From Burkholderiaceae bacterium (GTDB lineage: Bacteria; Pseudomonadota; Gammaproteobacteria; Burkholderiales; Burkholderiaceae_C): DNA of 64,000 nt. Numbering within the stretch: position 1 is the stretch's first letter; each line of letters starts with the position of its first letter. The notes beneath the pieces were generated by a model. The model did not search any database. It was not told where the DNA came from and saw only the letters and a program-made list of their open reading frames with translations. Both the position numbers and the translations under genes were made by a program. The stretch is from assembly GCA_016790175.1 (NCBI GenBank), contig JAEUPI010000094.1, positions 20,967 to 84,966 of the forward strand, written 5' to 3'. Below, in pieces: positions 1 to 54,716 of the stretch.

Positions 1-2
1 AG

Positions 3-2909: not shown

Positions 2910-3923
2910 ATGAACCCCGCCGCTCGTTCGCGTGGACTCGTCGCCGCGCTCACCATCGCCGCGCTGGTGGCGATGGTGGCGGCCTATTTCGCGCCGATCT
3001 GGTGGGTGGCACTGACGGCGCCCAACTACCCGAAAGACGCCTTCCCCGACGGCATCCGCATCCACTTCCACTTCGACGGCGTGCAAAACGGCTGCACCAC
3101 GCCGGGCGCCGGCTCGCGCATGGGCCAGGAGACCATGCAGGGCGATCTCGGCAAGGACTCCGAGCGCTACAACCCGATCACCGACAAGAACAAGGACATC
3201 AACAAGGGCGCCGCGGGCCTGGACTGCGTGCACGAGATGAACACCATCAACCACTACGTGGGCATGTTCCCGATCGCCACGGGCGCCCCGGTGGAAAAGC
3301 CGCTGGCCAAGTTCTTCTTCGGCTTCTTCGCGGTGATGCTGGTCGGCTTCGCGATCACGCAGAAGAAGGCGCGGCTCGCGGTCCTCGCCATCGGCTTCGC
3401 GGCCGTGGCGGCCTGGGCCGTGGTGGATCAGTACGTGCTGGGCCATCTGGCGCGCCATGTGGCCGACTACGTGAACGAGGCCGGCACCTTCTTCAAGGAG
3501 CCGGCCAAGATCGCCGCCTGGGGCGACAACGTGCGCCTGGCCACGCACGGCGCCATCGCGGGGCTGATCGTCGCGATGGTCGTGGTGGTGTGGGGCGTGG
3601 CGCGGGTGCGCGGTTTCGAGCTGCTGCTGGCACTGGTGCCGGCACTGCTGCCGCTGTACTTCGTGATCACCTATGCCGCGTGGCTGTGGTTCTTCGGGCA
3701 CAACCTGCATCCCTGGGGCGCGTTCACCGTCAAGCCCTTCATGCCCACCGTGTTCGGCGAGGGCAAGGTGGCGCAGTTCTCGACCTACTCGTATCCCTAC
3801 TGGGGCTACGCGCTGCTGATCGTGGTGTTCGTCTGCCTGATGCTGGCGCTGCTGCTGCGCCGGCGCGATCTGCGCGAACAAGCGTCCGTGCCGCAGGTCG
3901 CGCAGGCGCCGCAGGCGGCATGA
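2910..3923 (+). CDS. nosB: NosB-like polytopic membrane protein of clade-II nos clusters
   Basis: About 6 hydrophobic helices with a large first periplasmic loop (APNYPKDAFPDGIRIHFHFDG...). Its position between the cytochromes and nosD matches clade-II nos clusters. Assignment rests on context plus topology. Confidence 0.65.
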   Translation: MNPAARSRGLVAALTIAALVAMVAAYFAPIWWVALTAPNYPKDAFPDGIRIHFHFDGVQNGCTTPGAGSRMGQETMQGDLGKDSERYNPITDKNKDINKGAAGLDCVHEMNTINHYVGMFPIATGAPVEKPLAKFFFGFFAVMLVGFAITQKKARLAVLAIGFAAVAAWAVVDQYVLGHLARHVADYVNEAGTFFKEPAKIAAWGDNVRLATHGAIAGLIVAMVVVVWGVARVRGFELLLALVPALLPLYFVITYAAWLWFFGHNLHPWGAFTVKPFMPTVFGEGKVAQFSTYSYPYWGYALLIVVFVCLMLALLLRRRDLREQASVPQVAQAPQAA

Positions 3924-3930
3924 GGGCCAG

Positions 3931-5319
3931 ATGCTGCGGATGCGCCGTTTCGCCTTTGGGCCGCTCGGCCTTGCGCTGCTGCTGGGCTCGTCGCTGCTGG
4001 CTGCCCGCAACAGCGAAACGCTGGACGAAACGCGTGCCCCGCTCGCTGCCACCGAGCGTGCCCACGAAGCCGGCGCACCGCGCGTCGGCGTCGACCGGCC
4101 GAAGCCGACTTTTCCGCTGTATCAGCGCGACAAGCGCATTCACGGGCTGAAGCCGCTGCAGCCGCTGGTCGATGCGGCGCCTGCGGGCTCGGTGCTGAAG
4201 CCGCCGCCGGGCAGCTACGCCGGCCCGGTGGTGCTCGCCAAGCCGCTCACGATCGACGGCGGCGGCCAGGTGACGATCGATGCCGGCGACAAGGGCACGG
4301 TGTTCTCGCTGCAGGCCGACGGTGCCGTGCTGCGCGGCCTGCACCTCACCGGCTCCGGCGATTCGCACGACACCGACGATGCATGCCTCGACGTGCGCGG
4401 CCACCGCAACCACATCGAGCAGCTCGTGATCGACAACTGCCTGTTCGGCATCGACCTGAAGCAGTCGAACGACAACATCCTGCGCGGCAACCGCGTGCGC
4501 TCCAAGCCGCTGGCGATCGGCGTGCGCGGCGACGGGCTGCGCCTCTGGTACAGCCACCGCAACTTGATAGAGGTCAATACGATCGTCGAGTCGCGCGATA
4601 TGGTCGCCTGGTACTCGCACCACAACGTCTATCGCGGCAACGTGGGCGAACGCAGCCGCTATTCGATCCACTTCATGTTCGCCCATCACAACCTCGTCGA
4701 GGACAACCGCTTCGTCGACAACGCGGTCGGCGTGTACTTCATGTACACCGAGGGCGGCACGCTGCGGCGCAACCTGATCTCGCATGCCACCGGCGCCACC
4801 GGCATGGCGGTGGGCTTCAAGGAGGCGAGCAACACCGTCGTCGAGGACAACGAGTTCGTCTACAACGCCATCGGCATCGGCTCGGACCTCTCGCCGTTCC
4901 AGCCCGACAGCAAGATCTGGATCCGCCGCAACCGTTTCGCCTACAACGGCATCGCGGTGCAGCTCACCAGCGAGCTCGGCGGCAACGTGGTGAGCGACAA
5001 CCTGTTCGAAGGCAACCTCACCCACGTGGTGCAGGCCGGCCGCGGCAAGGCCGGCCTGAACGAGTGGCGCGGCAACTACTGGGACGATTTCGCCGGCTTC
5101 GACCGCGACGCCGACGGCCGTGGCGACACGCCCTACGAGGCGTATGCCTATGCCGACCGCATCTGGATCGAGCAGCCGCCCGCGCGATTCTTCAAGACCG
5201 CCCCGGTGATGGAGCTGCTCGACTTTCTCGAGCGTCTGGCACCGTTCACGTCGCCCGAGCTGACGCTGAAGGACGACGCCCCTCGGTTCGCGAAGCCCTC
5301 GACAAGGAGCCCCGCGTGA
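3931..5319 (+). CDS. nosD: NosD, periplasmic right-handed beta-helix copper/sulfur-delivery protein
   Basis: Signal peptide; repeated beta-helix rungs (NxIxxNxI...GIxL pattern); C-terminal ...GRGDTPYEAYAYADRIWIEQPPARFF...LLDFLERLAPF. Confidence 0.9.
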   Translation: MLRMRRFAFGPLGLALLLGSSLLAARNSETLDETRAPLAATERAHEAGAPRVGVDRPKPTFPLYQRDKRIHGLKPLQPLVDAAPAGSVLKPPPGSYAGPVVLAKPLTIDGGGQVTIDAGDKGTVFSLQADGAVLRGLHLTGSGDSHDTDDACLDVRGHRNHIEQLVIDNCLFGIDLKQSNDNILRGNRVRSKPLAIGVRGDGLRLWYSHRNLIEVNTIVESRDMVAWYSHHNVYRGNVGERSRYSIHFMFAHHNLVEDNRFVDNAVGVYFMYTEGGTLRRNLISHATGATGMAVGFKEASNTVVEDNEFVYNAIGIGSDLSPFQPDSKIWIRRNRFAYNGIAVQLTSELGGNVVSDNLFEGNLTHVVQAGRGKAGLNEWRGNYWDDFAGFDRDADGRGDTPYEAYAYADRIWIEQPPARFFKTAPVMELLDFLERLAPFTSPELTLKDDAPRFAKPSTRSPA

Positions 5320-5330: not shown

Positions 5331-6128
5331 ATGACGCGCCAGGAGCGCCGCCGCTGGCTGCGCACCGTGCTGCTCGCCGGCGGCGTGCTCGGCGCGGCCC
5401 TTTCGGGCTGGCTGCCGGTGGCCTACGGCCAGAAGAAGCGGCTGCGCCCGCCCGGTGCGCTCGACGAGAAGGACTTTCTCGCTTCGTGCATCAAGTGCGG
5501 GCAATGCGTGCAGGTGTGCCCGGTGCAGGCGATCAAGCTCGCCGATCTGGTCGACGGCTTCGGCGTCGGTGTGCCCTTCATCGACGCGCGCGACCAGGCC
5601 TGCGACTTCTCGTGCGACGCGGTGCAGTGCATCCTCGCCTGCCCCACCGGTGCGCTGGTCTACCAGAAGCCCGGCTTCCTCGGCACGCGCAGCGGCGCGC
5701 CGTTGGCCGCCAAGCCGGTGCTCAAGGCCAAGGCCAAGGACCCGGAGCCGACGCTGAACCTCAAGGAGCGCATCGGCGTGGCCCGCCTCAACCGGCCCGA
5801 GGCCTGCCTCGCCGTGCAGGGCAAGGGCTTCAAGGGCCAGGCACGCGGCGCGGGCTTCACCGGCAAGCTGCGCTACATGGAGGTCGACCGCTGGAAGCCG
5901 ATCCGCGTGAGCGAGCACCCGTACGACCTGAAGGAATGCGACCTGTGCGTGCGCGAGTGCCCGGTCGAAAAGGCGATTTCGATCGAGACCTTCACGCTGC
6001 CCGACGGCCGCACGCGCCGCCAGCCGGTGGTGCATGAGCCCTGCGTGGGCTGCGGCGTATGCGAGATGGTGTGCCCGGTCGAACCGACCTGCATCACCGT
6101 CGAGTCGCGCGGGGTCTTCAGCACATGA
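5331..6128 (+). CDS. nosG: NosG, Tat-exported NapG-like poly-[4Fe-4S] ferredoxin
   Basis: Twin-arginine leader MTRQERRRWLRTVLLAGG; Cys clusters CIKCGQCVQVCP, CILACP, CDLCVRECP, CVGCGVCEMVCP. An alternative GTG start at 5316 overlaps the nosD stop. Confidence 0.85.
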   Translation: MTRQERRRWLRTVLLAGGVLGAALSGWLPVAYGQKKRLRPPGALDEKDFLASCIKCGQCVQVCPVQAIKLADLVDGFGVGVPFIDARDQACDFSCDAVQCILACPTGALVYQKPGFLGTRSGAPLAAKPVLKAKAKDPEPTLNLKERIGVARLNRPEACLAVQGKGFKGQARGAGFTGKLRYMEVDRWKPIRVSEHPYDLKECDLCVRECPVEKAISIETFTLPDGRTRRQPVVHEPCVGCGVCEMVCPVEPTCITVESRGVFST

Positions 6129-7114
6129 GCACGCACGCGCAGGTGCACCGCGCGCGCTGGCGCGAGCAGATCGCCGTGCTGCTCGGCCGCGAACCCAAGA
6201 AGCCGGCGCATGTGACCGAGGTGGCGATCAAGCTGCACGAGATCAAGCGCGCGCGGCCCAAGGCCGAGGTGAAGGCGGCGATCGAGGCCGCGCACGCCAC
6301 GCCGCGCGGCCACAAATGGCGCAACCGGCGTTGGGCGGTGCTGATCGCGGCCAACCTGCTGTTCACGGTGTCGTATCTGCTCGACATCCAGGTGCTCGAA
6401 GGCGCGTTGACGGCGTCGCGCTTCATCGGCTTTCACCTGATCGACCTGAACTCGGCGCTGCAGGTGATGCTGGCGCACAAGCACGTGATCACGAACCTGG
6501 TGATCGGCACGCTCACGGTGGCCACCGGCTGGATGCTGCTCGGCGGCCGCACGTTCTGCTCGTGGGTGTGCCCGTACCACCTGCTGTCGGAATGGGCCGA
6601 GAAGCTGCACCTGTGGCTGGCCAGGAAGAAACTGGTGAGCGACCAGCACATGGACCGGCGTCTGCGCGTCGCATTCTGGGTCGCCTTCGCGCTGGCGGCA
6701 CTGGCCACCGGGTACACGGTGTTCGAGGCGATCTCGCCGACCGGTATCGTCTCGCGCGCGCTGATCTACGGCCCCGGCCTCGCGCTGCTGTGGGTCGCGG
6801 CGCTGCTGCTGTTCGAGGTGGTGATCAGCCGCCGCGCCTGGTGCCGCTACGCCTGCCCGATCGGGCTGACCTACGGTGTGGTGGGCATCTTCGCGCCGCT
6901 GCGCGTGAAGTACAACCTGCAGAACTGCCTGCACGAGGGCGACTGCCGCAAGGTCTGCCTGGTGCCGCATGTGCTCGAGACGGTGATCAAGAGTCGCGCC
7001 GCCGATGTCGACGTACCGCTCGGCCCCGACTGCACGCGCTGCGGGCTGTGCGTCGACCAGTGCCCCACCGGCTCGCTGACGTTCGACGTCAAGGGCCTGA
7101 GCAAGCTGCTGTAG
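6125..7114 (+). CDS. nosH: NosH, NapH-like membrane-bound iron-sulfur quinol dehydrogenase subunit
   Basis: ATGA overlap with the nosG stop; TM helices with CSWVCPYHLL and CRYACPIGL motifs plus C-terminal CxxCxxCxxxCP (CTRCGLCVDQCP). Confidence 0.85.
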   Translation: MSTHAQVHRARWREQIAVLLGREPKKPAHVTEVAIKLHEIKRARPKAEVKAAIEAAHATPRGHKWRNRRWAVLIAANLLFTVSYLLDIQVLEGALTASRFIGFHLIDLNSALQVMLAHKHVITNLVIGTLTVATGWMLLGGRTFCSWVCPYHLLSEWAEKLHLWLARKKLVSDQHMDRRLRVAFWVAFALAALATGYTVFEAISPTGIVSRALIYGPGLALLWVAALLLFEVVISRRAWCRYACPIGLTYGVVGIFAPLRVKYNLQNCLHEGDCRKVCLVPHVLETVIKSRAADVDVPLGPDCTRCGLCVDQCPTGSLTFDVKGLSKLL

Positions 7115-7123: not shown

Positions 7124-7986
<863 letters not shown>

Positions 7987-7990
<4 letters not shown>

Positions 7991-8511
7991 AGCGCCGCGC
8001 CGTGCTCGCCTGCGGTTCGCTGCTCACGCCGGTGGCGAGCCTGCTGCTCGCCGCCTGCGCCGACGACTCCGGCCCCTGGCCCGAGGGCATGGCGCCGATC
8101 AAATGGGATCGCGACACCTGCGCGCGCTGCGCGATGGTGATCTCGGATCGCCGCTTCGCGGCCGAGGTGCGTGGAACCGGCGCGAACCAGGTCGCCAAGT
8201 TCGACGACATCGGCTGCGCCGTCACCTGGTGCGCCGAGAAGACGAAGCAGCATGTCTGGCTCACCGACCCGGCCACGCGTCTCTGGGTCGCCGAGTTCGC
8301 CGGCCAGGGCAAGCGCTGGCTCGATGCCAAGACCGCCCATTTCGCGCCCGGCCCACGCTCGCCGATGGGCTACGACCTCGCGGCGCATGCGCAAGCTGCG
8401 GCCGGCAGCACCGACTTCGACACCATGGCGCGCAAGGCCGCCTCCACCTGGCCGGCGCAGTGTCTGCCGGGCAAGCACGCCGGTGCAGCGAACAGCATAG
8501 GCGCGTCATGA
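7987..8511 (+). CDS. nosL: NosL copper-chaperone lipoprotein
   Basis: ATGA overlap with nosF; lipobox LLLAAC; DTCARCAMVISDRRFAAEV...KFDDIGC motif typical of NosL. Confidence 0.85.
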
Positions 8512-9335
8512 AAAGTCTCTGGCTCGCTGCACGACTGGACCTTGCGGAGACACTTCGCGCACGCTGGTTCGCGATCTACACGCTGGTGTTCGGCGGCATC
8601 GTGGCGCTGCTGTTCCTGTTCGGCCTCACCGAGTCGCGCGTGCTCGGCTTCATCGGCCTGTCGCGGCTGCTGGTCACCTACATCCAGCTCACGATGGCGA
8701 TCCTGCCGATCTTCGTGCTGCTGACCACCGTGCGCTCGGTGGCCGGCGACCGCGAGGCCGGCGTCTACGAGTACCTGCTGTCGCTGCCGGTGTCGCTGGC
8801 GGGCTGGTTCTGGGGCCGCACGATCGGCCGCTACCTGGCGATCTTTGCGCCGGTGTTCGGCGCGATGCTGCTCGCGGTGGCGATCGCGCTGGTGCGCGGC
8901 ATCGAGGTGCCCTGGGCCGTCTTCGGCTTCTACACCGCGCTGCTGGCGGTGATGTGCGCCTGCTTCCTGGGCCTGGGCATGCTGATCACCGCCCTCGCCC
9001 GCTCGACCGACATGGCGCAGGGCGCCGCGTTCCTGCTGTGGCTGGTGCTGCTGCTGTTTCTCGACCTGATCCTGCTCGGCGTGATGATCCAGGGCAAGGT
9101 CGCGCCCGAGACCGCGGTGACGATCGCGCTGGCCAACCCGCTGCAGGTGTTCCGCACCGCGGCGCTGGCCCTCTTCGATCCGCAGCTGATCGTGCTCGGG
9201 CCCTCGGCCTACGTGATCCTCGATCTGTTCGGCGCCGCGGGCTACAAGGCCTTCGCGCTCGCCTACCCCACCGCGCTAGGCCTTGGCGCCGCCGCGCTCG
9301 GCTACTGGCGCTTCCGGCGCGGGGATCTGCCATGA
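8508..9335 (+). CDS. nosY: NosY, ABC-2 type permease
   Basis: ATGA overlap with nosL; six hydrophobic segments; operon context with nosD/nosF. Confidence 0.85.
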   Translation: MKSLWLAARLDLAETLRARWFAIYTLVFGGIVALLFLFGLTESRVLGFIGLSRLLVTYIQLTMAILPIFVLLTTVRSVAGDREAGVYEYLLSLPVSLAGWFWGRTIGRYLAIFAPVFGAMLLAVAIALVRGIEVPWAVFGFYTALLAVMCACFLGLGMLITALARSTDMAQGAAFLLWLVLLLFLDLILLGVMIQGKVAPETAVTIALANPLQVFRTAALALFDPQLIVLGPSAYVILDLFGAAGYKAFALAYPTALGLGAAALGYWRFRRGDLP

Positions 9336-9901
9336 AGCGGCGCTCGCTCGCGGGCGCGCTCGGACTGCTGCTCGGCGCACCGTCGTTCGTGCGCGCCCAG
9401 GCGAATACGCCAGTGCCGGCGCCAGCGCCGGTGCCCCCGACCGCGGGCCTGACCTTGATCGAGCCCGGCCGCATGGGCAGCGAAGCGCTGTTCGCCGCGA
9501 AGCTGATCGGCCTCGATGACCGCCCCACACAAGCCACGCTGCCCAAGGGCCGCGCGCTGGTGGTGAACTTCTGGGCCCGCTGGTGCGGCCCGTGCAAGGT
9601 CGAGATTCCGGAGCTGATCGCGCTGCGCAAGCGCGTGCCGGAGGTCGAGGTGCTGGGCATCGCCATCGAGACCGATGCCGCGGCCGTGCGCGACTTCGCG
9701 CGGGCCTACGAGATGGACTACCCGCTGCTGCTCGCCCGCGACGGCGGCCTCGAGCTGATGCGCGCGCTCGGCAACGCCAAGGCCGGCCTGCCCTTCACGC
9801 TGGTGCTCGACCGGCGCGGGGCGCCGGTGGCGATGCGCCTCGGGCTGGCCAGCCGCGAGCAGCTCGACGCCGCCGTGCAGCTCGCGCTGCGCCGGGGCTG
9901 A
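9332..9901 (+). CDS. TlpA/ResA-like periplasmic thiol:disulfide oxidoreductase
   Basis: ATGA overlap with nosY; signal peptide; thioredoxin active site NFWARWCGPCKVEIPEL. Confidence 0.85.
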   Translation: MKRRSLAGALGLLLGAPSFVRAQANTPVPAPAPVPPTAGLTLIEPGRMGSEALFAAKLIGLDDRPTQATLPKGRALVVNFWARWCGPCKVEIPELIALRKRVPEVEVLGIAIETDAAAVRDFARAYEMDYPLLLARDGGLELMRALGNAKAGLPFTLVLDRRGAPVAMRLGLASREQLDAAVQLALRRG

Positions 9902-9917
9902 CGTCGGAGCGCACGCG

Positions 9918-11171
9918 ATGTCACGCGCCGCGGCCGCGGCCTTCACGCTGGCCGGCCTGTGTGCGGCGGCCGCAGCGATCGCGCCGCCGCCGTCAGCACG
10001 AGCGTTGCAGCCGCTGATCGACGCCACGCCGACCGGTGCCACGTTGAGCCTGCCCGCCGGTGACTACCTCGGCCCGGCCACGATCGGCAAGCCGATGGTG
10101 CTCGACGGTGCCGGCGTCGCCCGCATCGTGGGCGACGGCCACGGCAGCGTGCTCGCGGTGCGCGCCGACGGTGTGACGCTGCGCGGGCTGCGCATCGAAC
10201 GCAGCGGCGATTCGACCGACCGCATCGACGCCGGCATCGTGCTGCAGGGCCGCGGCCATGTGGTCGAGCACAACGCGCTCGACGATGTGCTGTTCGGCAT
10301 CCACCTGCAGGGCACGAACGACTCGCTCGTGCGCAACAACCGCGTGCACGGCAAGGCGCTGGCGCCGGGGCTGCGCGGCGACGCCCTGCGGCTGTGGAAC
10401 GCGCGGCGCAACCGCATCGAGGACAACGCGTTCGAACGGGCGCGCGACCTCACGCTGATCAACTCGCCCGACAACCGGCTCGCCGGCAACCGCTTCCGCG
10501 ACGGCCGCTACGGCCTGCACGTGGTGTTCTCGCCGCGCCTGGCGGCCGAGCGAAACCGGCTCGAACACACCGGCACCGGCATCGTGGTGCTGTACTCGCC
10601 GCAGCTCGTGCTGCGCGGCAACCGCGTGGCCCATGCGCTCACCGACGGCGGCGCCGGCATCGTGCTGAAGGAAAGCGACGACTCCACCGTCGAAGGCAAC
10701 GAGGTACTGCACTGCGCGGTAGGCCTCAAGCTCGACACGCCGGTCGAGGGGCGCGGCAGCCTCGTCGTGCGCGGCAACCATTTCGCGCACAACATCGTGG
10801 GTCTGTTCTTCTATGGCGAGGCCGGCGCCGGGCAGTTCGACGACAACCGCTTCAGCCACAACCTCACCACGGTGGCCATCAGCGCACCGGGTGCCGGCAG
10901 CGCGCACCGCTGGCGCGGCAACCAGTGGGACGAATACCAGGGCCTGGATCTCGACCGCAACGGCATCGGCGACACGCCGCACGAGGTGCTGCTGTGGGCC
11001 GACCGCATCTGGATGGAGCGGCCGATGGCCACCTTCTTCCGCAACTCACCCGCACTCGAGCTGCTCGACCTGCTGGAGCGGCTGGCGCCGTTCACCTCAC
11101 CGGTGCGGGTGCTGCACGACCCCCGGCCGCGCCTGCACGGCGCGGCCACCGAACTGGAGACCTCACCATGA
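9918..11171 (+). CDS. Second NosD-family beta-helix protein (paralogue of 3931-5319)
   Basis: Colinear with NosD, including the C-terminal GIGDTPHEVLLWADRIWMERPMATFF...LLDLLERLAPFTSP. No dedicated nosF/nosY follows it. Confidence 0.85.
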   Translation: MSRAAAAAFTLAGLCAAAAAIAPPPSARALQPLIDATPTGATLSLPAGDYLGPATIGKPMVLDGAGVARIVGDGHGSVLAVRADGVTLRGLRIERSGDSTDRIDAGIVLQGRGHVVEHNALDDVLFGIHLQGTNDSLVRNNRVHGKALAPGLRGDALRLWNARRNRIEDNAFERARDLTLINSPDNRLAGNRFRDGRYGLHVVFSPRLAAERNRLEHTGTGIVVLYSPQLVLRGNRVAHALTDGGAGIVLKESDDSTVEGNEVLHCAVGLKLDTPVEGRGSLVVRGNHFAHNIVGLFFYGEAGAGQFDDNRFSHNLTTVAISAPGAGSAHRWRGNQWDEYQGLDLDRNGIGDTPHEVLLWADRIWMERPMATFFRNSPALELLDLLERLAPFTSPVRVLHDPRPRLHGAATELETSP

Positions 11172-12052
11172 CCCGACGACTGCTCGCACTCGCCGCCATG
11201 CTGACCGGCACCCTCGGCACGCCATCGGCGCTCGCCCAAGCTGAAGACATGGCCTTGCAGGCGGTGGCCGAGCTGGCGCGCCTGAACGGCCAGGCACTGG
11301 CCTGTCGCGACAGCGCAGCGGCGCAGCGCGCGAAGGCATTGATGCTGGAGCTGGCACCGAAGACCGGACGGTTCGGCAACGTGTTCGACGAAGGCACGCA
11401 GAACGCCTTCCTCGCGCAGACGCGCGCTGAGCGCCCCTGCCCGCCGGCTGCCGAGCTGAGTGCACAGCTCGATGCACAGGCGCGGCGCCTGCGCAGCGCA
11501 ACGGCCGGCCTGGCACATGCCCAGATCGCCGACGACAGCGAGCTGCCGCGTCACAGCATGCCTCGTTATCTGCTGCAAGGCCCGCGCGGCGGCGCGGTGA
11601 CGGGCGACGACTTCCGCGGCCGTTTCCAGCTCGTGGCCTTCGGCTTCACCTCGTGCCCCGACGTGTGCCCCACCACGCTGATCGAAGTGAAGCAGACGCT
11701 CGAGGCGCTCGGCGAGCGCGCGGCGAAGCTGCAGCCGGTGTTCATCACCATCGACCCGCAACGCGACACGCCGGTGGTGATCGAGGCCTACACCAAGGCG
11801 TTCGATCCGCGCATTCTCGGCCTCACCGGCAGCGAGGCGCTGGTGCGCCGCGCGGCAGACAGCTTCAAGGTGCGCTATCGCCGGGTGCAGGAGCCCGGTG
11901 CCGCGCCCGACGTCTACACGATGGAGCACAGCGCAGGCATGTTCCTGCTCGGCCCCGACGGGCAGCTGCTCGAACGCATCGTCTACGGCACCACGGTGCG
12001 CGAGATCGTCACGCGCATCGGAACCTGGATGGACACCGCCGCCGCGCGATGA
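11168..12052 (+). CDS. SCO1/SenC-family copper chaperone with a ~110-aa N-terminal extension
   Basis: ATGA overlap with the previous gene; signal peptide; FGFTSCPDVCPTTL (CxxxC) and a downstream His (MEHSAGMFL). Confidence 0.85.
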   Translation: MTRRLLALAAMLTGTLGTPSALAQAEDMALQAVAELARLNGQALACRDSAAAQRAKALMLELAPKTGRFGNVFDEGTQNAFLAQTRAERPCPPAAELSAQLDAQARRLRSATAGLAHAQIADDSELPRHSMPRYLLQGPRGGAVTGDDFRGRFQLVAFGFTSCPDVCPTTLIEVKQTLEALGERAAKLQPVFITIDPQRDTPVVIEAYTKAFDPRILGLTGSEALVRRAADSFKVRYRRVQEPGAAPDVYTMEHSAGMFLLGPDGQLLERIVYGTTVREIVTRIGTWMDTAAAR

Positions 12053-13344
12053 AGCGGCGCGCGCTGCTGCGGCTCGCGGGCGCCGCCGGCGTGTGGGCCG
12101 GGCAGCTGGGCGCCGGGCGCGCGGCCACTGGCGCCAAACCCCGCGTCGTGATCGTCGGTGCCGGCTGGGGCGGCCTGGCGGCGGCCTCTGCGCTGACGCG
12201 CGACAGCGAAACGTTCGACGTGCGGGTGTTCGATCGCGAGCGCGAGTTCCGCTCGCTGCCCCTCGCCAACGCCTGGCTCGTCGGACGCACGCCGCTGCGC
12301 CTGCCACCGCTGGACCTGGCCACGCTGGCGCGCCGCCAGGGCTGGCGCTTCGACGCCGCGCCGGTGCAGGCGATCGACCGCGCAAGGCGCGAGGTGCAGG
12401 CCGGCGGCGAGCGCATCGGCTACGACGCGCTGGTGCTCGCCACCGGCGCCGTCGGCGACCCCGCGGCCTGGTTCGGCGACGACGCGCGCGCCGCGAGTGA
12501 AGCGCGCACGCGATTCCCGGCCGGCTTCGAGGTCGGCGAGCTCGAAACCTGCCGCCAAAGGCTCGAGGCCTTTGCCGAAGTCGGCGGCGGCACGCTGCTG
12601 ATGACCGTGCCGCCGGCGCCCTACCGCTGCCCGCCGGCACCCTATGAACGCGCGGCGCTGATCGGCTGGTGGATCAAGACGCGCCGGCTGAAGGCGAAGT
12701 TGATCGTGCTCGATGCCGGCGGCGGCATGCCGCGCTTCAACCGCTTGTTCGGCGAACGCTACCAGGCGCAGATCGAACATCGCCTGCACACGCCGGTGCG
12801 CCGCGTCGATCCGTTTCGCAAGACGGTGACCACCGACGACGGCGAAGAACGCTTCGACCATGCGCTGCTGCTGCCGACCATGCATGCGGGCGCATTGGTG
12901 CGCGAGGCCGGCCTGCTCGGCCGCGATGCCCAGGGTGCCGCCACGCGCTGGGCCGCGGTGGACGCCGGCACGCTGCGCTCGCCGCACGACGAACGGGTGT
13001 GGATCGTCGGCGATGCGATGGACAACGTGTCGCCGCTCTTCGGCGCCTATCCGAAGACGGCGCACATCGCGGCCGATCTCGGTGCGGCCGCCGCGGCACA
13101 GATCGGCGCCGCGCTGCACGGTGCGCGCGATGCGGCGCCGGCCGCACTGCCGCGCAGCCTGTGTCATGTGTGGCTCGACGCCGAGCCGGCCGAGCAGTTG
13201 ATCCTCGACGCGAGCTTTCGCCGGCGCGGCGACGGCCTGATCGTTCAGAGCGTGCGCCAGACCGACAACCCGCAGCCGCGCGACGAGGACTTGCAGTGGG
13301 CGCGCGAGTTGATGGCACAACGGCTGGGCGTTTCGCTCGGCTAG
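12049..13344 (+). CDS. Tat-exported FAD-dependent oxidoreductase, FccB/SoxF (flavocytochrome c sulfide dehydrogenase flavoprotein)-like
   Basis: ATGA overlap with the sco1 stop; leader MKRRALLRLAGAAG; dinucleotide fold VVIVGAGWGGLAAA; PPAPYRCPPAPYERA motif as in FccB-type enzymes. No cytochrome subunit follows. Confidence 0.7.
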   Translation: MKRRALLRLAGAAGVWAGQLGAGRAATGAKPRVVIVGAGWGGLAAASALTRDSETFDVRVFDREREFRSLPLANAWLVGRTPLRLPPLDLATLARRQGWRFDAAPVQAIDRARREVQAGGERIGYDALVLATGAVGDPAAWFGDDARAASEARTRFPAGFEVGELETCRQRLEAFAEVGGGTLLMTVPPAPYRCPPAPYERAALIGWWIKTRRLKAKLIVLDAGGGMPRFNRLFGERYQAQIEHRLHTPVRRVDPFRKTVTTDDGEERFDHALLLPTMHAGALVREAGLLGRDAQGAATRWAAVDAGTLRSPHDERVWIVGDAMDNVSPLFGAYPKTAHIAADLGAAAAAQIGAALHGARDAAPAALPRSLCHVWLDAEPAEQLILDASFRRRGDGLIVQSVRQTDNPQPRDEDLQWARELMAQRLGVSLG

Positions 13345-13620
13345 GGCTGGCGTAAGGCAGGGCAACCGTTCGCCGTCGTGCCGGGCGAATGCGCGCAGCC
13401 GTGTGACCGAGCTTCATTTCAAGCCCGCGCAGCGCCCTCGCAACTCGGTCCGCTGGTTCGGTCCAACCGGCCGCTCTTGTTCGCCATTGCGATCGACGGG
13501 CCACTTCGCGGCAATTGCATAACTCAGAATGCCTGCGGTTGGATGTCCATTGATGTCGGGCGACTGCTCACGGCCACATCCTGCCGCTGACCACGGGCAG
13601 CTCTGGCAACGCTCCGTGCG

Positions 13621-13941
13621 TCAGCGGTAGTCGTTCTCGTGCTGGTCTCGCGCGGCGAGCAACAGGACATCGGCATCGCGAATCGCAAACAGAATGACGC
13701 ACCCGCCCTGTCCAAACGGGACGATCAGCTCGCGAAATTCCCTTTCCTCTTCGGCTCGGCGACAAGTGTGCGGCGCAAACGAGAGAATCCCCATCGCACG
13801 CTCGACCGCGTCGCGGAACCGAAAAAGACACGCCTCATCCGGCGTGTTGCTGGCGAGTTCGCGCTCGACGATGTGATCCTCGAGGCGCTTGACATCGTCT
13901 TGGAAAGTGGCGGTCGCAACAACGCGATACCGCTCACTCAC
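13621..13941 (-). CDS. ParE/RelE-superfamily type II toxin
   Basis: 106 aa; YRVV..A..D...L.. start and C-terminal ...ILFAIRDADVLLLAARDQHENDY pattern; 4-nt overlap with the upstream antitoxin gene. Confidence 0.75.
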   Translation of the reverse strand: MSERYRVVATATFQDDVKRLEDHIVERELASNTPDEACLFRFRDAVERAMGILSFAPHTCRRAEEEREFRELIVPFGQGGCVILFAIRDADVLLLAARDQHENDYR

Positions 13942-14246
13942 CGTGTTGCCCGCGTTTTCTTCGTCGCGACCGCATCACGAATGCGCTGCTGTGCCGCCCG
14001 GGCACGCTGCTCCATGCCCACCAGGAAGTCCTCGACCGTCAACAGGCCGACGCCCCTGTCAGCGCTGCGCAATGCCTTCTTCGCGCGTGCAACTGCGGCG
14101 TTCTGCTCAGCGCGAAACTCGGCCTCGCGGCGAACGGCGCTCTCGATGAACTGCGTCAACGATTCGCCTTCTCGCAGCACAGCCTCGAGGCTGGCCTTCG
14201 TTTCGGGTTCGACGCGGATGGGCGGCAAGGTGGCGGAGCGGGTCAT
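13938..14246 (-). CDS. Type II antitoxin (ribbon-helix-helix-like N-terminus) paired with the ParE-like toxin
   Basis: 102 aa starting at the ATG at 14246 (the ORF-track 300-aa ORF is an over-extension). PPIRVEPETKASLEAVL... beta-strand/helix start, then a helical charged tail; stop overlaps the toxin start. Confidence 0.7.
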   Translation of the reverse strand: MTRSATLPPIRVEPETKASLEAVLREGESLTQFIESAVRREAEFRAEQNAAVARAKKALRSADRGVGLLTVEDFLVGMEQRARAAQQRIRDAVATKKTRATR

Positions 14247-14256
14247 GAGGCATGAG

Positions 14257-14276
14257 TGTATAGCATTTCGTATACA
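14257..14276 (-). promoter_or_regulatory. AT-rich inverted repeat TGTATA-N8-TATACA just upstream of the antitoxin start (candidate TA operator / -10 region)
   Basis: Perfect 6-bp arms at 14257-14262 and 14271-14276, 11 nt from the ATG; locally AT-rich within a GC-rich background. Confidence 0.5.
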
Positions 14277-14449
14277 GATTCGAGCCGGGAGATTCGCTGC
14301 TGTCCGACCGAGCGACCGCTCTCTGGACGCGCACTCGGGGCCGCGGATGTCGCTGATGGGTCGAAAACAGCCCGTCGCCCCACCCGGCCGGGCGCCTGAA
14401 CCCAGTCCGCAGCACCCAGCGCCGAGCAGGGCTTGAAGTAGCCAACAGT

Positions 14450-15283
14450 TCATGCGACGTCTGTGTCTGGCAAGCCTGCGGCACGAAAGGCCATCGCGCG
14501 CTCGATGGCGCGCAGTTGCGGCTCGTGGACCGGTGCGGCGATCCGGACTTCCTGGATGGGCACCGCGTCCAGCACTTCGATGCCATGCAGACGGAAGATC
14601 TGACGGCCGGCGCGGCTGCGCGCAAGCTTGTGCACCTGGCGGATCAGCGCACCCAGTCGCTCGCGCTCGTTGGGCTGTCGCAGCACGCGGCGAATCGCCT
14701 CGCGCGCCACGTCGACAGCCCAGATTGCCTGGGTGACGACGTGTGGGCCTTTCGATTCCAGCAGGCCCACGGCGTTCTGCACCCTGGAATCCAGCACATG
14801 TAGCGGGTGCATGACGCGGATGATGTGCCCCGGCTTCCATTCGATTTCGACGCTTTCGCGCCAGACCGCCTGCGTGAACTCGCGAGACTTGCGCAGCCCG
14901 CCCACGGTGAACAGCAAGTGCAACACGTCGATGTTGCGCACCTTCCCCGCCGAGCCCGTGGGGATGCGGATCTGCGAAACCAGCGGGGTGAGGGTGGCGG
15001 CCTGTGGGGTGAGCATCGCCGCGCGCAAGTGCACGGCGATGCGCCGGGCGCGCTCCAGATTTCCGAGCACGTCGCCGTCGTTGGAGATGCTGGCCGTCGT
15101 TGTCGTGACGCCGTAACGGTCCATCCAGAAGGCAAGCGCTTGCCCGCCAACCAGGACCATGTCGGTGCCCACGCCCTCCAGAAACGCATCGAGCGTGGCC
15201 GCGTCCAGCGGCGCCTCGTCTTCCGGCAGCAAAGGCCGGGTTGCTGGCTCGGGCGAGCGTTGGCGGCGCTTGCTCATCACCAT
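14450..15283 (-). CDS. Uncharacterised protein with a polymerase-beta-type nucleotidyltransferase motif pattern (candidate toxin partner of the ParD-like gene)
   Basis: VLVGGQALAFW...(20 aa)...SNDGDVLG...RNIDVLH fits hG[GS]-x-D.D-x-D. Starts 19 nt after the ParD-like stop. Start taken at MVMSKRR (15283); 15277 is also possible. Confidence 0.5.
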   Translation of the reverse strand: MVMSKRRQRSPEPATRPLLPEDEAPLDAATLDAFLEGVGTDMVLVGGQALAFWMDRYGVTTTTASISNDGDVLGNLERARRIAVHLRAAMLTPQAATLTPLVSQIRIPTGSAGKVRNIDVLHLLFTVGGLRKSREFTQAVWRESVEIEWKPGHIIRVMHPLHVLDSRVQNAVGLLESKGPHVVTQAIWAVDVAREAIRRVLRQPNERERLGALIRQVHKLARSRAGRQIFRLHGIEVLDAVPIQEVRIAAPVHEPQLRAIERAMAFRAAGLPDTDVA

Positions 15284-15302
15284 GCCCGGCCGTAGGCCGG
15301 GC

Positions 15303-15641
15303 CTACAGCGGCGACTTGATCGCCTTGGCGCGCCGCGCACGGCCGCCCGAGAACCAGCTCATCGACTCGTTGCTCGCCCGGCCTGACTCGATGGCTGCGA
15401 TGTCGCGCGCCTGCTGGGCGCGCTTGGCAGCCCACAACGTGCTTTCAGGCGGATTGCGCGTCGCCTTGTCACCATGCAGCAATTCAACGAGTTCGCCAAC
15501 CGACAGACCGCTCTGCTCCAGCGCAGCGCCCAACCGCGCCCAGTGCTCAAGCTGCTGGGCAGCCGATCGCGACAGAACCTCGCCGTGGCGCTGGGCGTGC
15601 TCGAACAGCTCGGCGGAGATGCGGATGGAGTTGCTGCTCAT
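15303..15641 (-). CDS. ParD-like (PF11903-type) antitoxin family protein
   Basis: IRISAELFEHAQRHGEVLSRSAAQQLEHWARLGAALE matches the ParD-like RS..QQ(I/L)EHWA(R)LG signature as I remember it. ATG at 15641 preferred over the GTG at 15662. Confidence 0.65.
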   Translation of the reverse strand: MSSNSIRISAELFEHAQRHGEVLSRSAAQQLEHWARLGAALEQSGLSVGELVELLHGDKATRNPPESTLWAAKRAQQARDIAAIESGRASNESMSWFSGGRARRAKAIKSPL

Positions 15642-15758
15642 GCTGCTGTGGCAGATTACCACAATTCCGTCCGCGCGGCCTCAGCACTCGCGCACGAGAT
15701 GCGCTCGCGCCTTCGGCAGCCGAAGCGTCGTCCGCAGTGGACGCCGCTTCGCGCGGCC

Positions 15759-16595
15759 TCAGCGCCGGTCGCGCACCACGAACGGCTCGATCAGCGCCTC
15801 CTGCACCGACGGCGGCCGGTTGCGCGCCTTGTCGAAGTTGGCGTTCCAGACATCGGCGTTCGAAAGCTCGGCGTCGCGCATGTCGGCATCCTCGAACACG
15901 GCATGGCGAAGCGTGGCGCCGAGCAGCTTGGTACCCACGAGCTGGGACCGCGAGAAGTCCACCTTCTCCAACGCCGCGCCGGTGAGGTCGGCCCCGCTCA
16001 GGTTCGCGCCGACAAACCTGGCGCCGGAGAACACGCCGCGCAACGCATAGCAGCCCTGGATCGAGCCGCCGCTCAGGTCGATGCCCTCCATCAGCACGTC
16101 TTTCAGGTAGGCACCGCCGAAATCGGCACGCGGCGCCTTGGTGCCGATCAGGTTGGCGCCGAACAGGTTGGCACCGCCGAACATCCCATCGGAGACGTCG
16201 GCGTCGTCGAAGGTGGCGTGAAACAGGTCGGCCTTGCGAAAGTCGGCCTTCGCGAGCTGTGCGCCGGTGAAGTTGGCCCACTTGGCGTTGCTGCCGCCAA
16301 AGTCAGCGCCCTCCAGACGCGCCCGCCGCAGGTCGGCGCTTTCGAGCTTGGCACCGGCCAGGCGCACGCCGCGCAGATCGCGACCCGACAGCCGCGCGCG
16401 CGTGAAGTCGCACGCCGAGAGATCGGTCTGCGGCCTCGGGTCGGTGCAGTTGCCGCGCGGCAGGTCGGCGGCCTGCGCCACACCGACCAGCACGACCGCC
16501 ACGCGCGCCCAAGCGGACGCCGCGGATCCGGCTTCGCCGGTCCGCCAGCGGCGCCCCCTGGGGGGAGGCGCCGAAGGCGCTTCGGGGGGGGTCAC
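15759..16595 (-). CDS. Pentapeptide-repeat protein (exported?)
   Basis: About 40 consecutive A(D/N)LxG-type pentapeptides (ADLSGADLTGAALEKVDFSRSQLVGTKLLGATLRHAVFEDADMRDAELSNADV...); N-terminal hydrophobic stretch VAVVLVGVAQA. Confidence 0.85.
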   Translation of the reverse strand: MTPPEAPSAPPPRGRRWRTGEAGSAASAWARVAVVLVGVAQAADLPRGNCTDPRPQTDLSACDFTRARLSGRDLRGVRLAGAKLESADLRRARLEGADFGGSNAKWANFTGAQLAKADFRKADLFHATFDDADVSDGMFGGANLFGANLIGTKAPRADFGGAYLKDVLMEGIDLSGGSIQGCYALRGVFSGARFVGANLSGADLTGAALEKVDFSRSQLVGTKLLGATLRHAVFEDADMRDAELSNADVWNANFDKARNRPPSVQEALIEPFVVRDRR

Positions 16596-16596
16596 A

Positions 16597-17139
16597 TCAA
16601 TGCCGCGCGTAGATGCTCGTCTTGCCGTCTGGGGACACCAGCAGCGTCACGAATGCCTCGCGGCGGATCTCGTTCTCGCGACCGGCGTTGTCGAGGATCG
16701 TGCACGCCGTCTCGCAATACGGGTTGTAGTTCTCTCGCCCCGGCGCACCGCGCGGCAGCCCCGGCACCGCGAGGCCGCGCGCCTTGGGCCGCTCCTTAAG
16801 CAACGTGAGGATGTCGGTGGCCGGCACATGGCCCTCGATGAAGTAGCCCGCCACGCGCGCGGTGTGCACCGATTCGAGCTGCGACGGCACGTTGAGCCAG
16901 CGCTTGATGCGCGGCATCTCGGCGCTCGGCTTGTCTTCGATGGTCACCGCGAAGCCGTGCTTGCGCAGGTGTTCGGCCCAGTCGATGCACGCGAGGCACG
17001 GGCTGGGCGCGTAGACCACCACGGGCGGCAGCCCGGTGCGGTCGTTCGCCGCCGCTGGCGCAATGAGGGCAGCGCTCAATACGGCAACGGCCGCGAGCCT
17101 CAGCACGGCTTTTCCTTCGAGCAGCCTTTGAGGATCCAC
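16597..17139 (-). CDS. DUF411 (CopG-like) periplasmic metal-binding protein
   Basis: Signal peptide; SPCLACIDW; hallmark ESVHTARVAGYFIEGHVPATDI. An alternative GTG start at 17106 would reduce the overlap with the upstream gene. Confidence 0.8.
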   Translation of the reverse strand: MDPQRLLEGKAVLRLAAVAVLSAALIAPAAANDRTGLPPVVVYAPSPCLACIDWAEHLRKHGFAVTIEDKPSAEMPRIKRWLNVPSQLESVHTARVAGYFIEGHVPATDILTLLKERPKARGLAVPGLPRGAPGRENYNPYCETACTILDNAGRENEIRREAFVTLLVSPDGKTSIYARH

Positions 17140-17591
17140 AGCGAGATCTCGCCGGCCACCTCGTCGGCGCGCACCTTGCGCGCCATGCTCAGCACATCGC
17201 GCCCGGCCTCGGTCTTGGCGTGCGGGTCGGCCCCGGCGCGCAGCAGCAGCTTGGTATTGGCCGTGCGCGTGGCAAAGGCCGCCATGTGCAGCGGCGTGCG
17301 GCCTTCGGCGTCGCGCGCGTTGGGGTTGGCGCCGGCGGCCAGCAGCGCCTGCGTGGGGCCGGGGTCGAGGTTCATCGCCGCATAGTGCAGCGGCGTGGCG
17401 CCCTGCGTGGTGCGCACGTCGCGCTGCGAGGCGTCGGCCTTCAACAAGCCCTCGACGGTTGCGCGCGTGCCCTGGCGCGCGGCGTCGTGGATCGGGCGTT
17501 CGTTCTGGCCCTGCGCGAAGGCATCTGCCGCCGCAAGCACCAGCGCACCGGCGAGCATCGCCCCAAGGGCTACACGCACGGCGCCCCTCAT
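17100..17591 (-). CDS. Exported ankyrin-repeat protein
   Basis: Start at MRGAVRVALGAMLAGALVLAAADAFA (ATGA overlap with the cytochrome gene stop); ANK repeats GATPLHYAA...LLAAGANPNARDAEGRTPLHMAA...LLLRAGADP. Confidence 0.85.
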   Translation of the reverse strand: MRGAVRVALGAMLAGALVLAAADAFAQGQNERPIHDAARQGTRATVEGLLKADASQRDVRTTQGATPLHYAAMNLDPGPTQALLAAGANPNARDAEGRTPLHMAAFATRTANTKLLLRAGADPHAKTEAGRDVLSMARKVRADEVAGEISLWILKGCSKEKPC

Positions 17592-18283
17592 GGCTTGCCC
17601 CCGGCGGTCGTGGCCGTGCCGGCCGGGCCGGACTGGATCAAGGTGAGGTAGGCCAGCACGTCCAGCAGCTCCTGTTCCTTCATCTCGTTGAGGATGCCTT
17701 TGACCTCGACCTCGTCGTGCGGCCGATCGCCCTTGACGAAGGCGTCGATCTGCTTCTTCAGATAGGCCGTGTACTGCCCCACCAGCCGCGGGAACTTGCC
17801 CTTGCCCATGCCGTCTTTCGCGTGGCAGGCCGCGCATTCCTTCTGGTAGAGCTTGCCGCCCTGCTCGGTGTCGCCCGGCGATCGCGGGATGATCATCACC
17901 TTCTCCATCGCCGTCAATCGCGTGAGCGCATCGTCGCCCGGCTTGAACTCGGGCCACTGCGTGGGCAGCTCCACCTGCGCCAGATAGGCCGACACGTCCT
18001 CGATATCGGCGTCGGACAGCTCGCGCTCCTGCGTGTACGGGTACATCGGGATGTTGATGCGCGTGCGTTTGCGAAAGGCGCGCAGCTGGTCCACCAGGTG
18101 TGCCATTCGCTGGCCGGCCAGCCGCGGATACTCGCCGCGCTTGCCGCCCTGGCCGAATTCGCCGTGGCAGCCGGCGCAGGTGGCGTTGATCTCCTTGCCG
18201 CGCTCGAGGTTCTGCGCCGGCGCGGCCAGCGCCAGGCTCAGCAACAGTGCCCCTACGCACGGCGACAGCCGGTTCGTCTTCAT
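17588..18283 (-). CDS. Dihaem cytochrome c (c4 family)
   Basis: Signal peptide MKTNRLSPCVGALLLSLALAAPA; CAGCH and CAACH motifs. The upstream ATG at 18355 falls inside the FNR-type box, so 18283 is preferred. Confidence 0.85.
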   Translation of the reverse strand: MKTNRLSPCVGALLLSLALAAPAQNLERGKEINATCAGCHGEFGQGGKRGEYPRLAGQRMAHLVDQLRAFRKRTRINIPMYPYTQERELSDADIEDVSAYLAQVELPTQWPEFKPGDDALTRLTAMEKVMIIPRSPGDTEQGGKLYQKECAACHAKDGMGKGKFPRLVGQYTAYLKKQIDAFVKGDRPHDEVEVKGILNEMKEQELLDVLAYLTLIQSGPAGTATTAGGKP

Positions 18284-18348
18284 GACCTTCTTGGCGCGGG
18301 CCGCGCCCGCGACGACAGCGAGCATCGCGCCGGGCCGGGACGCGGTCC

Positions 18349-18362
18349 TTGACATTGTTCAA
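18349..18362 (-). promoter_or_regulatory. FNR/Dnr/NnrR-type box TTGAC-ATTG-TTCAA
   Basis: TTGA-N6-TCAA palindrome centred ~72 nt upstream of the cytochrome c ATG (18283), in the 93-nt gap after the SPASM remnant. Confidence 0.6.
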
Positions 18363-18376
18363 GGAAGCGCGCGCGC

Positions 18377-18796
18377 TCAGGGTATCACTTCGACGGACTC
18401 GTAGACCTCGCAATCGGTGAGCTGCCGCCGCAGCGGCGGCGACAGCCGCGCGAACCAGTCCTGCGGGCGCTGGCGGTCAACCTCGCGGCCGATGAAGCGC
18501 AGCAGCTCGCAGATCGGTTCGACCACATTGGTGCGGTAGCGCAGATCGTTCTTCACGTGGCCGAGGTAGAGGTTCTTCATGCAGTTGCCGCGGCACCAGG
18601 CGTAGGCCTCGCAGCCGTGGCACGGCATCGCGGGCGTCTGCTGCAATGGGCTCGGCTTCAGCCAGTTGCCCTGGACGCTGCCCATCCGCATCGCCGGCAC
18701 GTACATCATGTCGGGGCAGGGGTAGATGCTGCCGTCGGGCATCACGTTGATCATGTGCGACGACACGCGGCACTGCGTGCGGCCGGCGTACAGCAA
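18377..18796 (-). pseudogene. 5'-truncated radical-SAM/SPASM maturase remnant (SPASM domain only)
   Basis: GRTQCRVSSHMINVMPDGSIYPCPD...MPCHGCEAYAWCRGNCMKN is a SPASM Cys pattern, but no CxxxCxxC radical-SAM core. The frame is closed by a stop at ~18863, only a TTG start is available, and luxR begins 170 nt away. Confidence 0.7.
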
Positions 18797-54701: not shown

Positions 54702-54716
54702 CCGAGGCCGGCGGCG

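Follow-up and report, generated by a model that had tools for sequence, protein, structure and literature searches.

We analyzed a stretch of 64,000 nucleotides (nt) from a Burkholderiaceae bacterium (NCBI GenBank assembly GCA_016790175.1, contig JAEUPI010000094.1, positions 20,967 to 84,966 of the forward strand; hereafter, the window, whose first letter is position 1), and found that its clade II (probably Sec-type) nos operon, which encodes nitrous oxide (N2O) reductase (NosZ), is extended by four genes at 9332-13344, giving 14 genes in total on a single strand. The added stretch encodes five periplasmic functional units, namely a thioredoxin, a second NosD (NosD2), a small domain that we call X, a Sco domain, and a flavoprotein resembling the FccB subunit of flavocytochrome c sulfide dehydrogenase (FCSD). 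On balance, we lean toward the reading that these units serve as a periplasmic thiol/copper/sulfide accessory module for a NosZ that is probably exported by Sec.

Four genes added to a clade II nos operon

A preliminary description of this DNA had placed four more genes past nosY, joined by ATGA overlaps at 9332, 11168, and 12049 or by a 16-nt gap. Using the translations, the sequence of the nosY junction, and a table of all junctions to define gene ends, we recovered each of these boundaries (Table 1), and the genes called independently by JGI and NCBI for the source contig (JGI metagenome 3300009873; also metagenome-assembled genome [MAG] GCA_044222585.1) have identical coordinates. More specifically, 4-nt overlaps occur at 6 of the 13 operon junctions and the widest gap is 71 nt. 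A consensus scan detected no sigma-70-like promoter in 9000-14500. All four genes are real, because the GC content at their third codon positions is 0.86-0.94, their Pfam matches are strong (E-values of 3.8e-13 for Redoxin, 2.5e-30 for NosD, 5.9e-45 for SCO1-SenC, and 5.9e-21 for FCSD_central), and orthologues stand in identical order in many genomes, including a Burkholderiaceae MAG, Sphaerotilus microaerophilus, Rhodoferax, and Sulfuritalea. Both their membership of the operon and the domains first assigned to them hold.

The upstream part of the operon is of clade II type, as nosB, nosG and nosH, c-type cytochrome genes, and nosDFYL are all present, and no nosR or nosX was seen in the nos cluster. 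NosZ, truncated by the start of the window together with its signal peptide, is best matched by the NCBIfam model for Sec-dependent NosZ (TIGR04246; 580 bits vs a cut-off of 625); on the source contig, the full-length protein has 763-782 amino acids (aa). It carries the CuA motif CTEFCSALHLEM, with the CuA cysteine pair CTEFC. Following the cupredoxin domain, the same protein ends in a helical, Lys/Ala-rich tail of ~110 aa (1340-1700, plus strand) that has no Pfam match and no CxxCH. The gene nosL, which was absent from the preliminary description, lies between nosF and nosY, giving the order F-L-Y instead of the usual F-Y-L. Compared with the clade II cluster of Wolinella succinogenes (nosZ-B-D-G-C1-C2-H-F-Y-L), the operon shares a NosZ of probable Sec type, nosB, nosD, nosGH, two cytochromes c, and nosF/Y/L, but its order is Z-c-c-B-D-G-H-F-L-Y, followed by the thioredoxin gene and then by nosD2, X-sco, and the flavoprotein gene, which constitute an optional cassette (see below).

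Proteins encoded by the added genes

The thioredoxin has a signal peptide and the motif W84-C85-G-P-C88, matches Pfam Redoxin/AhpC-TSA, and belongs to the periplasmic TlpA/ResA/DsbE group; its PDB sequence matches include ResA and TlpA. The label "TlpA-like" that it first received is apt for the WCGPC motif and the wider fold group, but the protein is no TlpA orthologue, scoring 45.5 bits against the NCBIfam TlpA equivalog NF047696 (cut-off 230) and 51 bits against ResA (cut-off 170). A PDB sequence search also returned the solved TlpA-ScoI complex (4txo) among the matches for both this thioredoxin and the Sco domain.

The open reading frame (ORF) previously described as SCO1 does encode a SCO1/SenC domain with its ligands (PF02630, including CxxxC and the distal His), but an N-terminal part had been missed: the ORF is a fusion of a small, four-helix, two-cysteine unit (X) with a ScoI-like domain. 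The best PDB sequence match of the latter is Bradyrhizobium japonicum ScoI (4wbr), with an identical CPDVCP motif and with C163, C167, and H254 aligned. We found no N-terminal membrane anchor for Sco, only a cleavable-looking signal peptide followed by X (as judged without a dedicated predictor); in relatives, Sco has a signal peptide of its own. The arrangement thus resembles the TlpA-ScoI(-PcuC) pathway of Bradyrhizobium in combining a periplasmic thioredoxin with a ScoI-like protein bearing the same CPDVCP and ligand His, and a CuA-bearing target, NosZ, is encoded in the same operon. In contrast to that pathway, the Sco protein here lacks a membrane anchor and is fused to X, and the genes belong to the nos operon instead of lying at another genomic site.

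X is fused to Sco in the window and in its closest relative (L081), but most relatives encode the two separately: in eight loci (L001, L004, L007, L009, L013, L019, L083, and L087, the last being S. microaerophilus), an X gene for 118-139 aa, including a signal peptide, lies between nosD2 and sco. Because the two are fused in some loci and are separate adjacent genes elsewhere, their organization argues that X and Sco work together. In an alignment of X sequences, C46, M59, and C91 are invariant and His62 is nearly so, although the fused forms have another residue there. Neither Pfam nor NCBIfam gave a match for X, and none of its 27 database homologues carries a Pfam domain, the few named ones being called "hypothetical protein". 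The structural model is a four-helix bundle (pLDDT 89.8) for which a structure search returned no PDB match (best E = 2.9); copper-storage protein was considered as the fold of X and set aside (E 9.7, not significant). None of the scanned operon proteins matched the PCuAC family, and X may take PCuAC's place.

NosD2 is a secreted beta-helix protein that scores 324.9 bits against TIGR04247 (cut-off 300), matches Pfam NosD and Beta_helix, and is 39.7% identical to NosD1. Relative to Pseudomonas stutzeri NosD, known from the NosDFY-NosL system (PDB 7o0y and related entries), it belongs to the same beta-helix family and retains the C-terminal region, the alignment spanning residues 7-395 and including the NSPxxExL region, but it is only 30% identical, has Val and Leu in place of Met209 and Met231, and possesses a His/Cys set of its own. 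Those two methionines form part of an H-x-M...M triad (H207/M209/M231 in P. stutzeri), the residues of which are found in 69, 65, and 67, respectively, of 77 aligned, diverse NosD representatives. As the 22-residue spacing between M209 and M231 corresponds to one beta-helix rung, the two Met should stack beside the His, and the triad is probably the Cu(I) site of NosD. NosD1 preserves it (H247/M249/M271), whereas NosD2 has H201/V203/L225, and the Met positions are occupied by Val/Ile and by Leu in all 20 NosD2 orthologues checked. The residues invariant in NosD2 itself are H129, H265-C266, H355, and M366. The cluster holds a single nosF and a single nosY, none specific to nosD2, in agreement with the earlier account of a paralogue lacking its own NosF and NosY; with its Met pair gone, however, NosD2 is not merely an extra NosD.

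NosD-like genes lacking the Met pair also exist as orphans, with no nos, sco, or ABC transporter genes as neighbors (L169 4814-5980; L170 9001-10320), which suggests that the NosD fold has roles outside N2O reductase maturation. Further Met-less NosD-like sequences (P0242, P0244-P0246) were considered as members of a wider cassette and rejected, being orphans or located on short contigs without nos, sco, or flavoprotein neighbors.

The last added gene encodes a flavoprotein that was initially taken to be Tat-exported and of FCSD type, an assignment borne out by our data. In an alignment of 21 family members, the twin arginines (R3, R4) of the Tat signal as well as C194, C372, and H373 are invariant. 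The protein has the FAD fold (GAGWGG), with scores of 44 bits for PF07992 (cut-off 26) and 75 bits for PF21706 (cut-off 27). The redox-active pair of Allochromatium FCSD (1fcd_A), Cys161 and Cys337, aligns with C194 and C372, and the protein was likewise aligned to 5n1t_A; the motif RCPPxPYERA is common to the flavoprotein and the solved FccB chains. Consistently, the top structural matches of the model (pLDDT 86.1) are FCSD chains (TM 0.73-0.81), below which SQR and NDH-2 structures rank. Identity as an SQR was considered and rejected, as the best such model (type III) gave 61 bits vs 525 and the protein has a single C-terminal helix (residues 413-426). On the basis of the retained cysteines and the modeled fold, we predict that the flavoprotein reacts with sulfide or thiols.

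Despite sharing a Tat signal, FAD fold, FCSD central domain, both redox cysteines, and RCPPxPYERA with FccB (1fcd, 3vrd, 5n1t), the flavoprotein is only 26-30% identical to it and has motifs of its own (C-H-V-W-L-D and DNPQPRDED). Cys42, which binds FAD covalently in 1fcd, is replaced by an invariant Leu70, so that the residue for 8-alpha-S-cysteinyl FAD is missing, and the C-terminal domain PF09242 was not detected by Pfam. Moreover, its constant genomic neighbor is a variant of DUF411, not a cytochrome. The preliminary description had noted the lack of a cytochrome partner, and indeed no fccA adjoins the gene, but three c-type cytochrome genes lie nearby, two within the operon and one in a convergent unit. 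A flavoprotein with no adjacent fccA and with a periplasmic thioredoxin nearby recalls the monomeric SoxF of Paracoccus, which acts together with SoxS, a thioredoxin of the periplasm. Among solved structures, the nearest relative is 5n1t, an enzyme of Thioalkalivibrio paradoxus that was crystallized in complex with the copper chaperone CopC; its fccAB genes lie together with copCD in the cluster for thiocyanate dehydrogenase, a copper enzyme (PMC5328954).

Distribution and genomic neighborhood

To place the cassette among related nos clusters, metagenome contigs were scanned with NosY, yielding 80 loci with at least 81% identity. Enough downstream sequence was available for 69 of these, and in 66 of them the gene right behind nosY encodes the thioredoxin. 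Among the 29 loci with at least 7 kb downstream of nosY, thioredoxin is present in 28, nosD2 in 15, sco in 13, and the flavoprotein in 11, and at least 11 loci of the scan end at the thioredoxin gene. These per-locus counts demonstrate that the thioredoxin is a core gene of this betaproteobacterial nos cluster type, whereas nosD2-X-sco-flavoprotein forms an optional cassette that about half of similar nos clusters carry. Wherever upstream sequence was available, nosD2-X-sco stood downstream of nosY and the thioredoxin gene and on their strand, and the ATGA overlap between the sco stop and the flavoprotein start is kept in 18 of the 32 loci in which these two genes are adjacent. Cultured carriers include S. 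microaerophilus and Sulfuritalea hydrogenivorans. We found no description of these additions to the nos operon in the literature searched, an absence that is no proof of novelty; public genomes contain the arrangement, with generic names for its genes, and the block is a clade II nos cluster variant with CuA-assembly and sulfur-oxidation parts.

In most relatives, extra genes that the window lacks stand between the thioredoxin gene and nosD2 (L087 7365-9990 in S. microaerophilus; L004 5211-7739; L009 6697-7650). They encode a MenG/UbiE methyltransferase (TIGR01934, 258 bits), a MenA DHNA prenyltransferase (TIGR00751, 164 vs 102), and a BASS-family transporter. MenG and MenA catalyze the last steps of menaquinone synthesis, and their genes lie here within the nos operon of a betaproteobacterium, which also codes for a quinol dehydrogenase, NosGH.

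The flavoprotein family is not restricted to nos clusters. Databases hold upward of 430 close homologues, all with no more specific name than FAD-dependent oxidoreductase, and species-representative genomes contain at least 592 relatives, onto the best 80 loci of which we mapped the proteins of the window. In 17 of these 80 loci (Rhodoferax, Sulfuritalea, Aalborgicola, and Burkholderiaceae), the order is nosF-L-Y, thioredoxin, (insert), nosD2, X/sco, flavoprotein. Another 17 (Dechloromonas, Azonexus) have a TolC/HlyD/MacB-type efflux pump upstream on the same strand, as exemplified by Dechloromonas agitata (L049 5271-9857). A thioredoxin gene lies immediately upstream in six, two of which follow nosY without nosD2 or sco. 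The remaining loci have no recognized upstream gene, and the five checked had unrelated ones (MetRS, GAF-domain cyclase, WS/DGAT). In a neighbor-joining tree, the nos-linked flavoproteins form one clade and those from other contexts form separate clades. The nearest relatives in Aquificaceae (31-34% identity) have a gene for a periplasmic thioredoxin within ~3 kb on the opposite strand in 6 of 10 loci, amid housekeeping genes (e.g., Hydrogenobacter sp., L079 9866-14048), and in five of these six a second FCSD-like gene lies in between. No nos gene was detected in the flanks of those loci, and this context says little about function.

The constant neighbor of the flavoprotein gene is a convergent DUF411 gene, which lies downstream in 61 of the 70 loci from Betaproteobacteria (at most 400 bp away in 39 of them), usually with a gene for a periplasmic ankyrin-repeat protein; the pairing persists where nos is not nearby. 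The DUF411 protein of the window shares the fold family and the GHVP histidine with CopG (6wis) but reads CLAC (CxxC in the variant as a whole) where CopG has CGCC, lacks the CHT cysteine along with both Met ligands, and has gained a C-terminal CxxxC. These changes recur in nearly all of the 64 neighbor genes (63-64 of 65 aligned sequences). We therefore rejected its identification as a true CopG copper-cluster protein. Because the CGCC motif, the CHT Cys, and the Met ligands are replaced, a tetranuclear copper cluster appears unlikely and a thiol-redox role more likely.

The DUF411 gene belongs to a minus-strand unit (15759-18796) that also contains genes for a small SPASM-domain-like protein (18377-18796), the c4-like cytochrome, the ankyrin protein, and a pentapeptide-repeat protein. 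The genes for the cytochrome, ankyrin, and DUF411 proteins form the tail of a napDAGHB operon in L081 and L083; those parts of the window that we examined contained no nap genes. Between the flavoprotein gene and the pentapeptide and DUF411 genes lies a minus-strand stretch (13400-15700) with a GC content of 0.66, compared with ~0.70-0.74 in the last 4 kb of the operon, which encodes a ParD-like antitoxin (15303-15641), a 277-aa protein without a family (14450-15283), and two small ORFs (13621-14246). It is likely an insertion, as it is absent from that position in the closest relative, L081. Farther away, 50758-60028 encodes an XylR-type sigma-54 activator followed by PEP-utilizers/PPDK_N proteins, a UbiD-family carboxylase, a UPF0261 protein, a CBS protein, and a UbiX-like flavoprotein, a set resembling the cluster for anaerobic phenol degradation (phenylphosphate synthase/carboxylase). 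A 935-aa Ser/Thr kinase (23529-26336), a secretin (30545-32986), and a 1294-aa BTAD/AAA_16 regulator (44401-48285) have no obvious link to the nos operon.

Table 1. Features of the nos operon and its convergent neighbors, in window coordinates
Feature	Coordinates	Strand	Remarks
nosZ, clade II/probable Sec type	1-1700	+	5' end beyond window; Pfam nos_propeller, Cupredoxin_1
c-type cytochrome, monohaem	1772-2089	+	Pfam (Cytochrom_C/Cytochrome_CBB3)
c-type cytochrome, two cytochrome c domains	2138-2890	+	Pfam (Cytochrom_C/Cytochrome_CBB3)
nosB	2910-3923	+	337 aa; no family match; named by position as in clade II clusters
nosD1	3931-5319	+	Pfam/NCBIfam
nosG	5331-6128	+	Pfam/NCBIfam
nosH	6125-7114	+	Pfam/NCBIfam
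nosF	7124-7990	+	Pfam/NCBIfam
nosL	7987-8511	+	Lipoprotein gene (MKRRAVLACGSLL...LLAAC); 4-nt overlap with both nosF and nosY
nosY	8508-9335	+	Pfam/NCBIfam
tlpA-like thioredoxin gene	9332-9901	+	ATG overlaps nosY stop as ATGA
nosD2	9918-11171	+	16-nt gap after thioredoxin gene
sco ORF (X + Sco)	11168-12052	+	ATGA overlap with nosD2
X domain	11168-11545 (end approximate)	+	Signal peptide and four-helix bundle, residues 1-~126
ScoI-like domain	11567-12052	+	PF02630, 153 bits, residues 134-266
fccB-like flavoprotein gene	12049-13344	+	ATGA overlap with sco
Weak terminator-like hairpin	13452-13473	+	~108 nt past flavoprotein stop; consensus scan only, no evidence of function
DUF411 (CopG-fold) variant	16597-17106	-	PF04214; convergent with flavoprotein gene
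Periplasmic ankyrin-repeat protein	17100-17558	-	Pfam; minus-strand unit with DUF411
Dihaem cytochrome c4-like	17588-18325	-	PDB matches to cytochrome c4; minus-strand unit with DUF411

Proposed role and competing explanations

From the gene content, motifs, fusion, conservation, and synteny documented above, we infer each functional step of the accessory module as follows. Clade II NosZ would be exported unfolded by Sec, so that the CuA cysteines of NosZ and the cysteines of Sco must stay reduced in an oxidizing periplasm. By analogy to TlpA-ScoI-CoxB, a strongly reducing thioredoxin could keep both in the thiol state, a role that would account for its near-constant presence in this cluster type. 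X-Sco would handle copper for CuA in parallel to the NosL-NosD1-NosFY route, and NosD2, with its beta-helix and C-terminal region kept, may act as a second periplasmic adaptor for another cargo or with another (His/Cys) ligand set. The flavoprotein, coupled in translation to Sco and accompanied across genomes by the cysteine-rich DUF411 variant, would oxidize sulfide, or protein persulfides or thiols, by means of its Cys194-Cys372 disulfide and FAD, thereby controlling free sulfide and the redox state of thiols where copper is trafficked in the periplasm; it would shield NosZ maturation and activity from sulfide rather than serve as an obligate sulfur donor.

The suggestion that the Sco and thioredoxin proteins are candidates for CuA assembly in NosZ had already been made in the preliminary description, and it is strengthened by the ScoI-like CPDVCP and His, the WCGPC motif, the CuA motif of NosZ, and precedent in Paracoccus denitrificans, in which senC2/pcuC is needed for N2O reduction at low copper (reviewed in PMC7558416). 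Similarly, senC adjoins nos in Bacillus azotoformans (PMC3475470).

Several points weigh against such a module. The cassette is absent from approximately half of otherwise similar nos clusters and is therefore not essential for NosZ. The flavoprotein family also occurs far from nos, following efflux pump or housekeeping genes, and it may thus serve a general function. Nor is the thioredoxin orthologous to characterized TlpA, and the assignment of the NosD triad as a Cu(I) site draws on conservation and beta-helix geometry. Finally, ScoI is reportedly not needed for NosZ in Bradyrhizobium.

The strongest competing explanation, which we consider a genuine possibility though not the likelier one, is that the flavoprotein, the DUF411 variant, the ankyrin protein, and a thioredoxin make up a general betaproteobacterial set for periplasmic sulfide/thiol-redox housekeeping. 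In this case, the flavoprotein would have come to stand at the end of a nos operon in one lineage only, with the thioredoxin, NosD2, and X-Sco being nos-related, so that the explanation partly overlaps the accessory-module reading. The convergent DUF411 gene in most loci, the varied upstream contexts (nosD2-sco, MacAB-type pump, thioredoxin, or unrelated genes), the position of the nos-linked flavoproteins as one clade among several, and the Aquificaceae relatives with a nearby thioredoxin gene all speak for it. Yet most loci of the nos-linked clade have the start of the flavoprotein gene overlapping the stop of sco, which argues for co-production with the cassette, and a nos-related role could be exerted at a distance, since the named carriers, we presume, all belong to clade II nosZ genera.

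The preliminary description had instead proposed that NosD2 and the flavoprotein form a dedicated branch delivering sulfide or persulfide to CuZ. We regard this as unlikely, its case being weakened because the flavoprotein is not nos-specific, occurring in several unrelated upstream contexts, and because its constant neighbor is DUF411. The absence from NosD2 of the Met pair and its acquisition of an invariant His-Cys pair would fit a cargo other than copper, and conserved Cys pairs in five neighboring proteins (thioredoxin, X, Sco, flavoprotein, and DUF411) are relay-like; furthermore, sulfur supply to CuZ was assigned to NosDFY as late as 2021 (PMC8179356). Nonetheless, about half of the closely related nos clusters lack the cassette, as do all classical nos systems, which still build CuZ, and FCSD-type enzymes oxidize sulfide and do not make it. 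Producing sulfide with electrons from cytochrome c or quinol would be thermodynamically uphill. In an elaboration of this idea that we find improbable, the single ABC motor, NosFY, would have two heads, of which NosD2 would be the one that carries sulfur instead of copper, docking on NosFY as well as on NosZ. It would be loaded by a persulfide relay that starts at the flavoprotein and passes X-Sco and the thioredoxin before reaching His265-Cys266. If that were true, the cassette would be the missing CuZ sulfur-donor pathway, dispensable only with another sulfide source.

A comparably improbable explanation holds that the flavoprotein is an electron input, passing electrons from sulfide oxidation to NosZ through the nos operon cytochromes or c4-type cytochromes. 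It is consistent with the retained FCSD catalytic cysteines and fold, with the two cytochrome c genes of the operon and the dihaem c4-like gene of the convergent unit, and with carriers such as Sulfuritalea and Sulfurisoma, which are sulfur oxidizers. Against it, there is no adjacent fccA-type partner; the c4-like cytochrome was considered as the missing FccA and rejected as a general partner, as it matches FccA weakly (E 1e-5 to 1e-4) and was not detected beside the DUF411 and ankyrin genes in Rhodocyclales-type loci. Placement of the flavoprotein gene after Sco and a NosD paralogue would also be left unexplained. Least probable is that the cassette matures another periplasmic cuproenzyme (a haem-copper oxidase or copper nitrite reductase) and is merely co-located with nos: Sco and TlpA-type proteins are best known from CuA assembly in cytochrome oxidase (PMC7558416) and Met-less NosD-like orphans exist away from nos, but the cassette keeps its fixed position behind nosY and the thioredoxin gene, and neither an oxidase gene nor nirK lies beside it in the window, L081, L083, or L087.

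N2O is a major greenhouse gas for which no biological sink other than N2O reductase is known, and clade II NosZ is dominant in many soils and wastewater plants. Assembly of CuA and CuZ is only partly understood, clade II maturation has hardly been studied, and we know of no established sulfur source for CuZ. The cassette offers genetically separable candidates in cultured bacteria, namely a thioredoxin, Sco with a new partner, a NosD without the Met pair, and a putatively sulfide-reactive flavoprotein, and natural comparisons are possible because about half of the sister clusters lack it. Even under the conservative reading of an accessory module that would shield copper trafficking and NosZ, it bears on the failure of N2O reduction in sulfidic or copper-poor settings.

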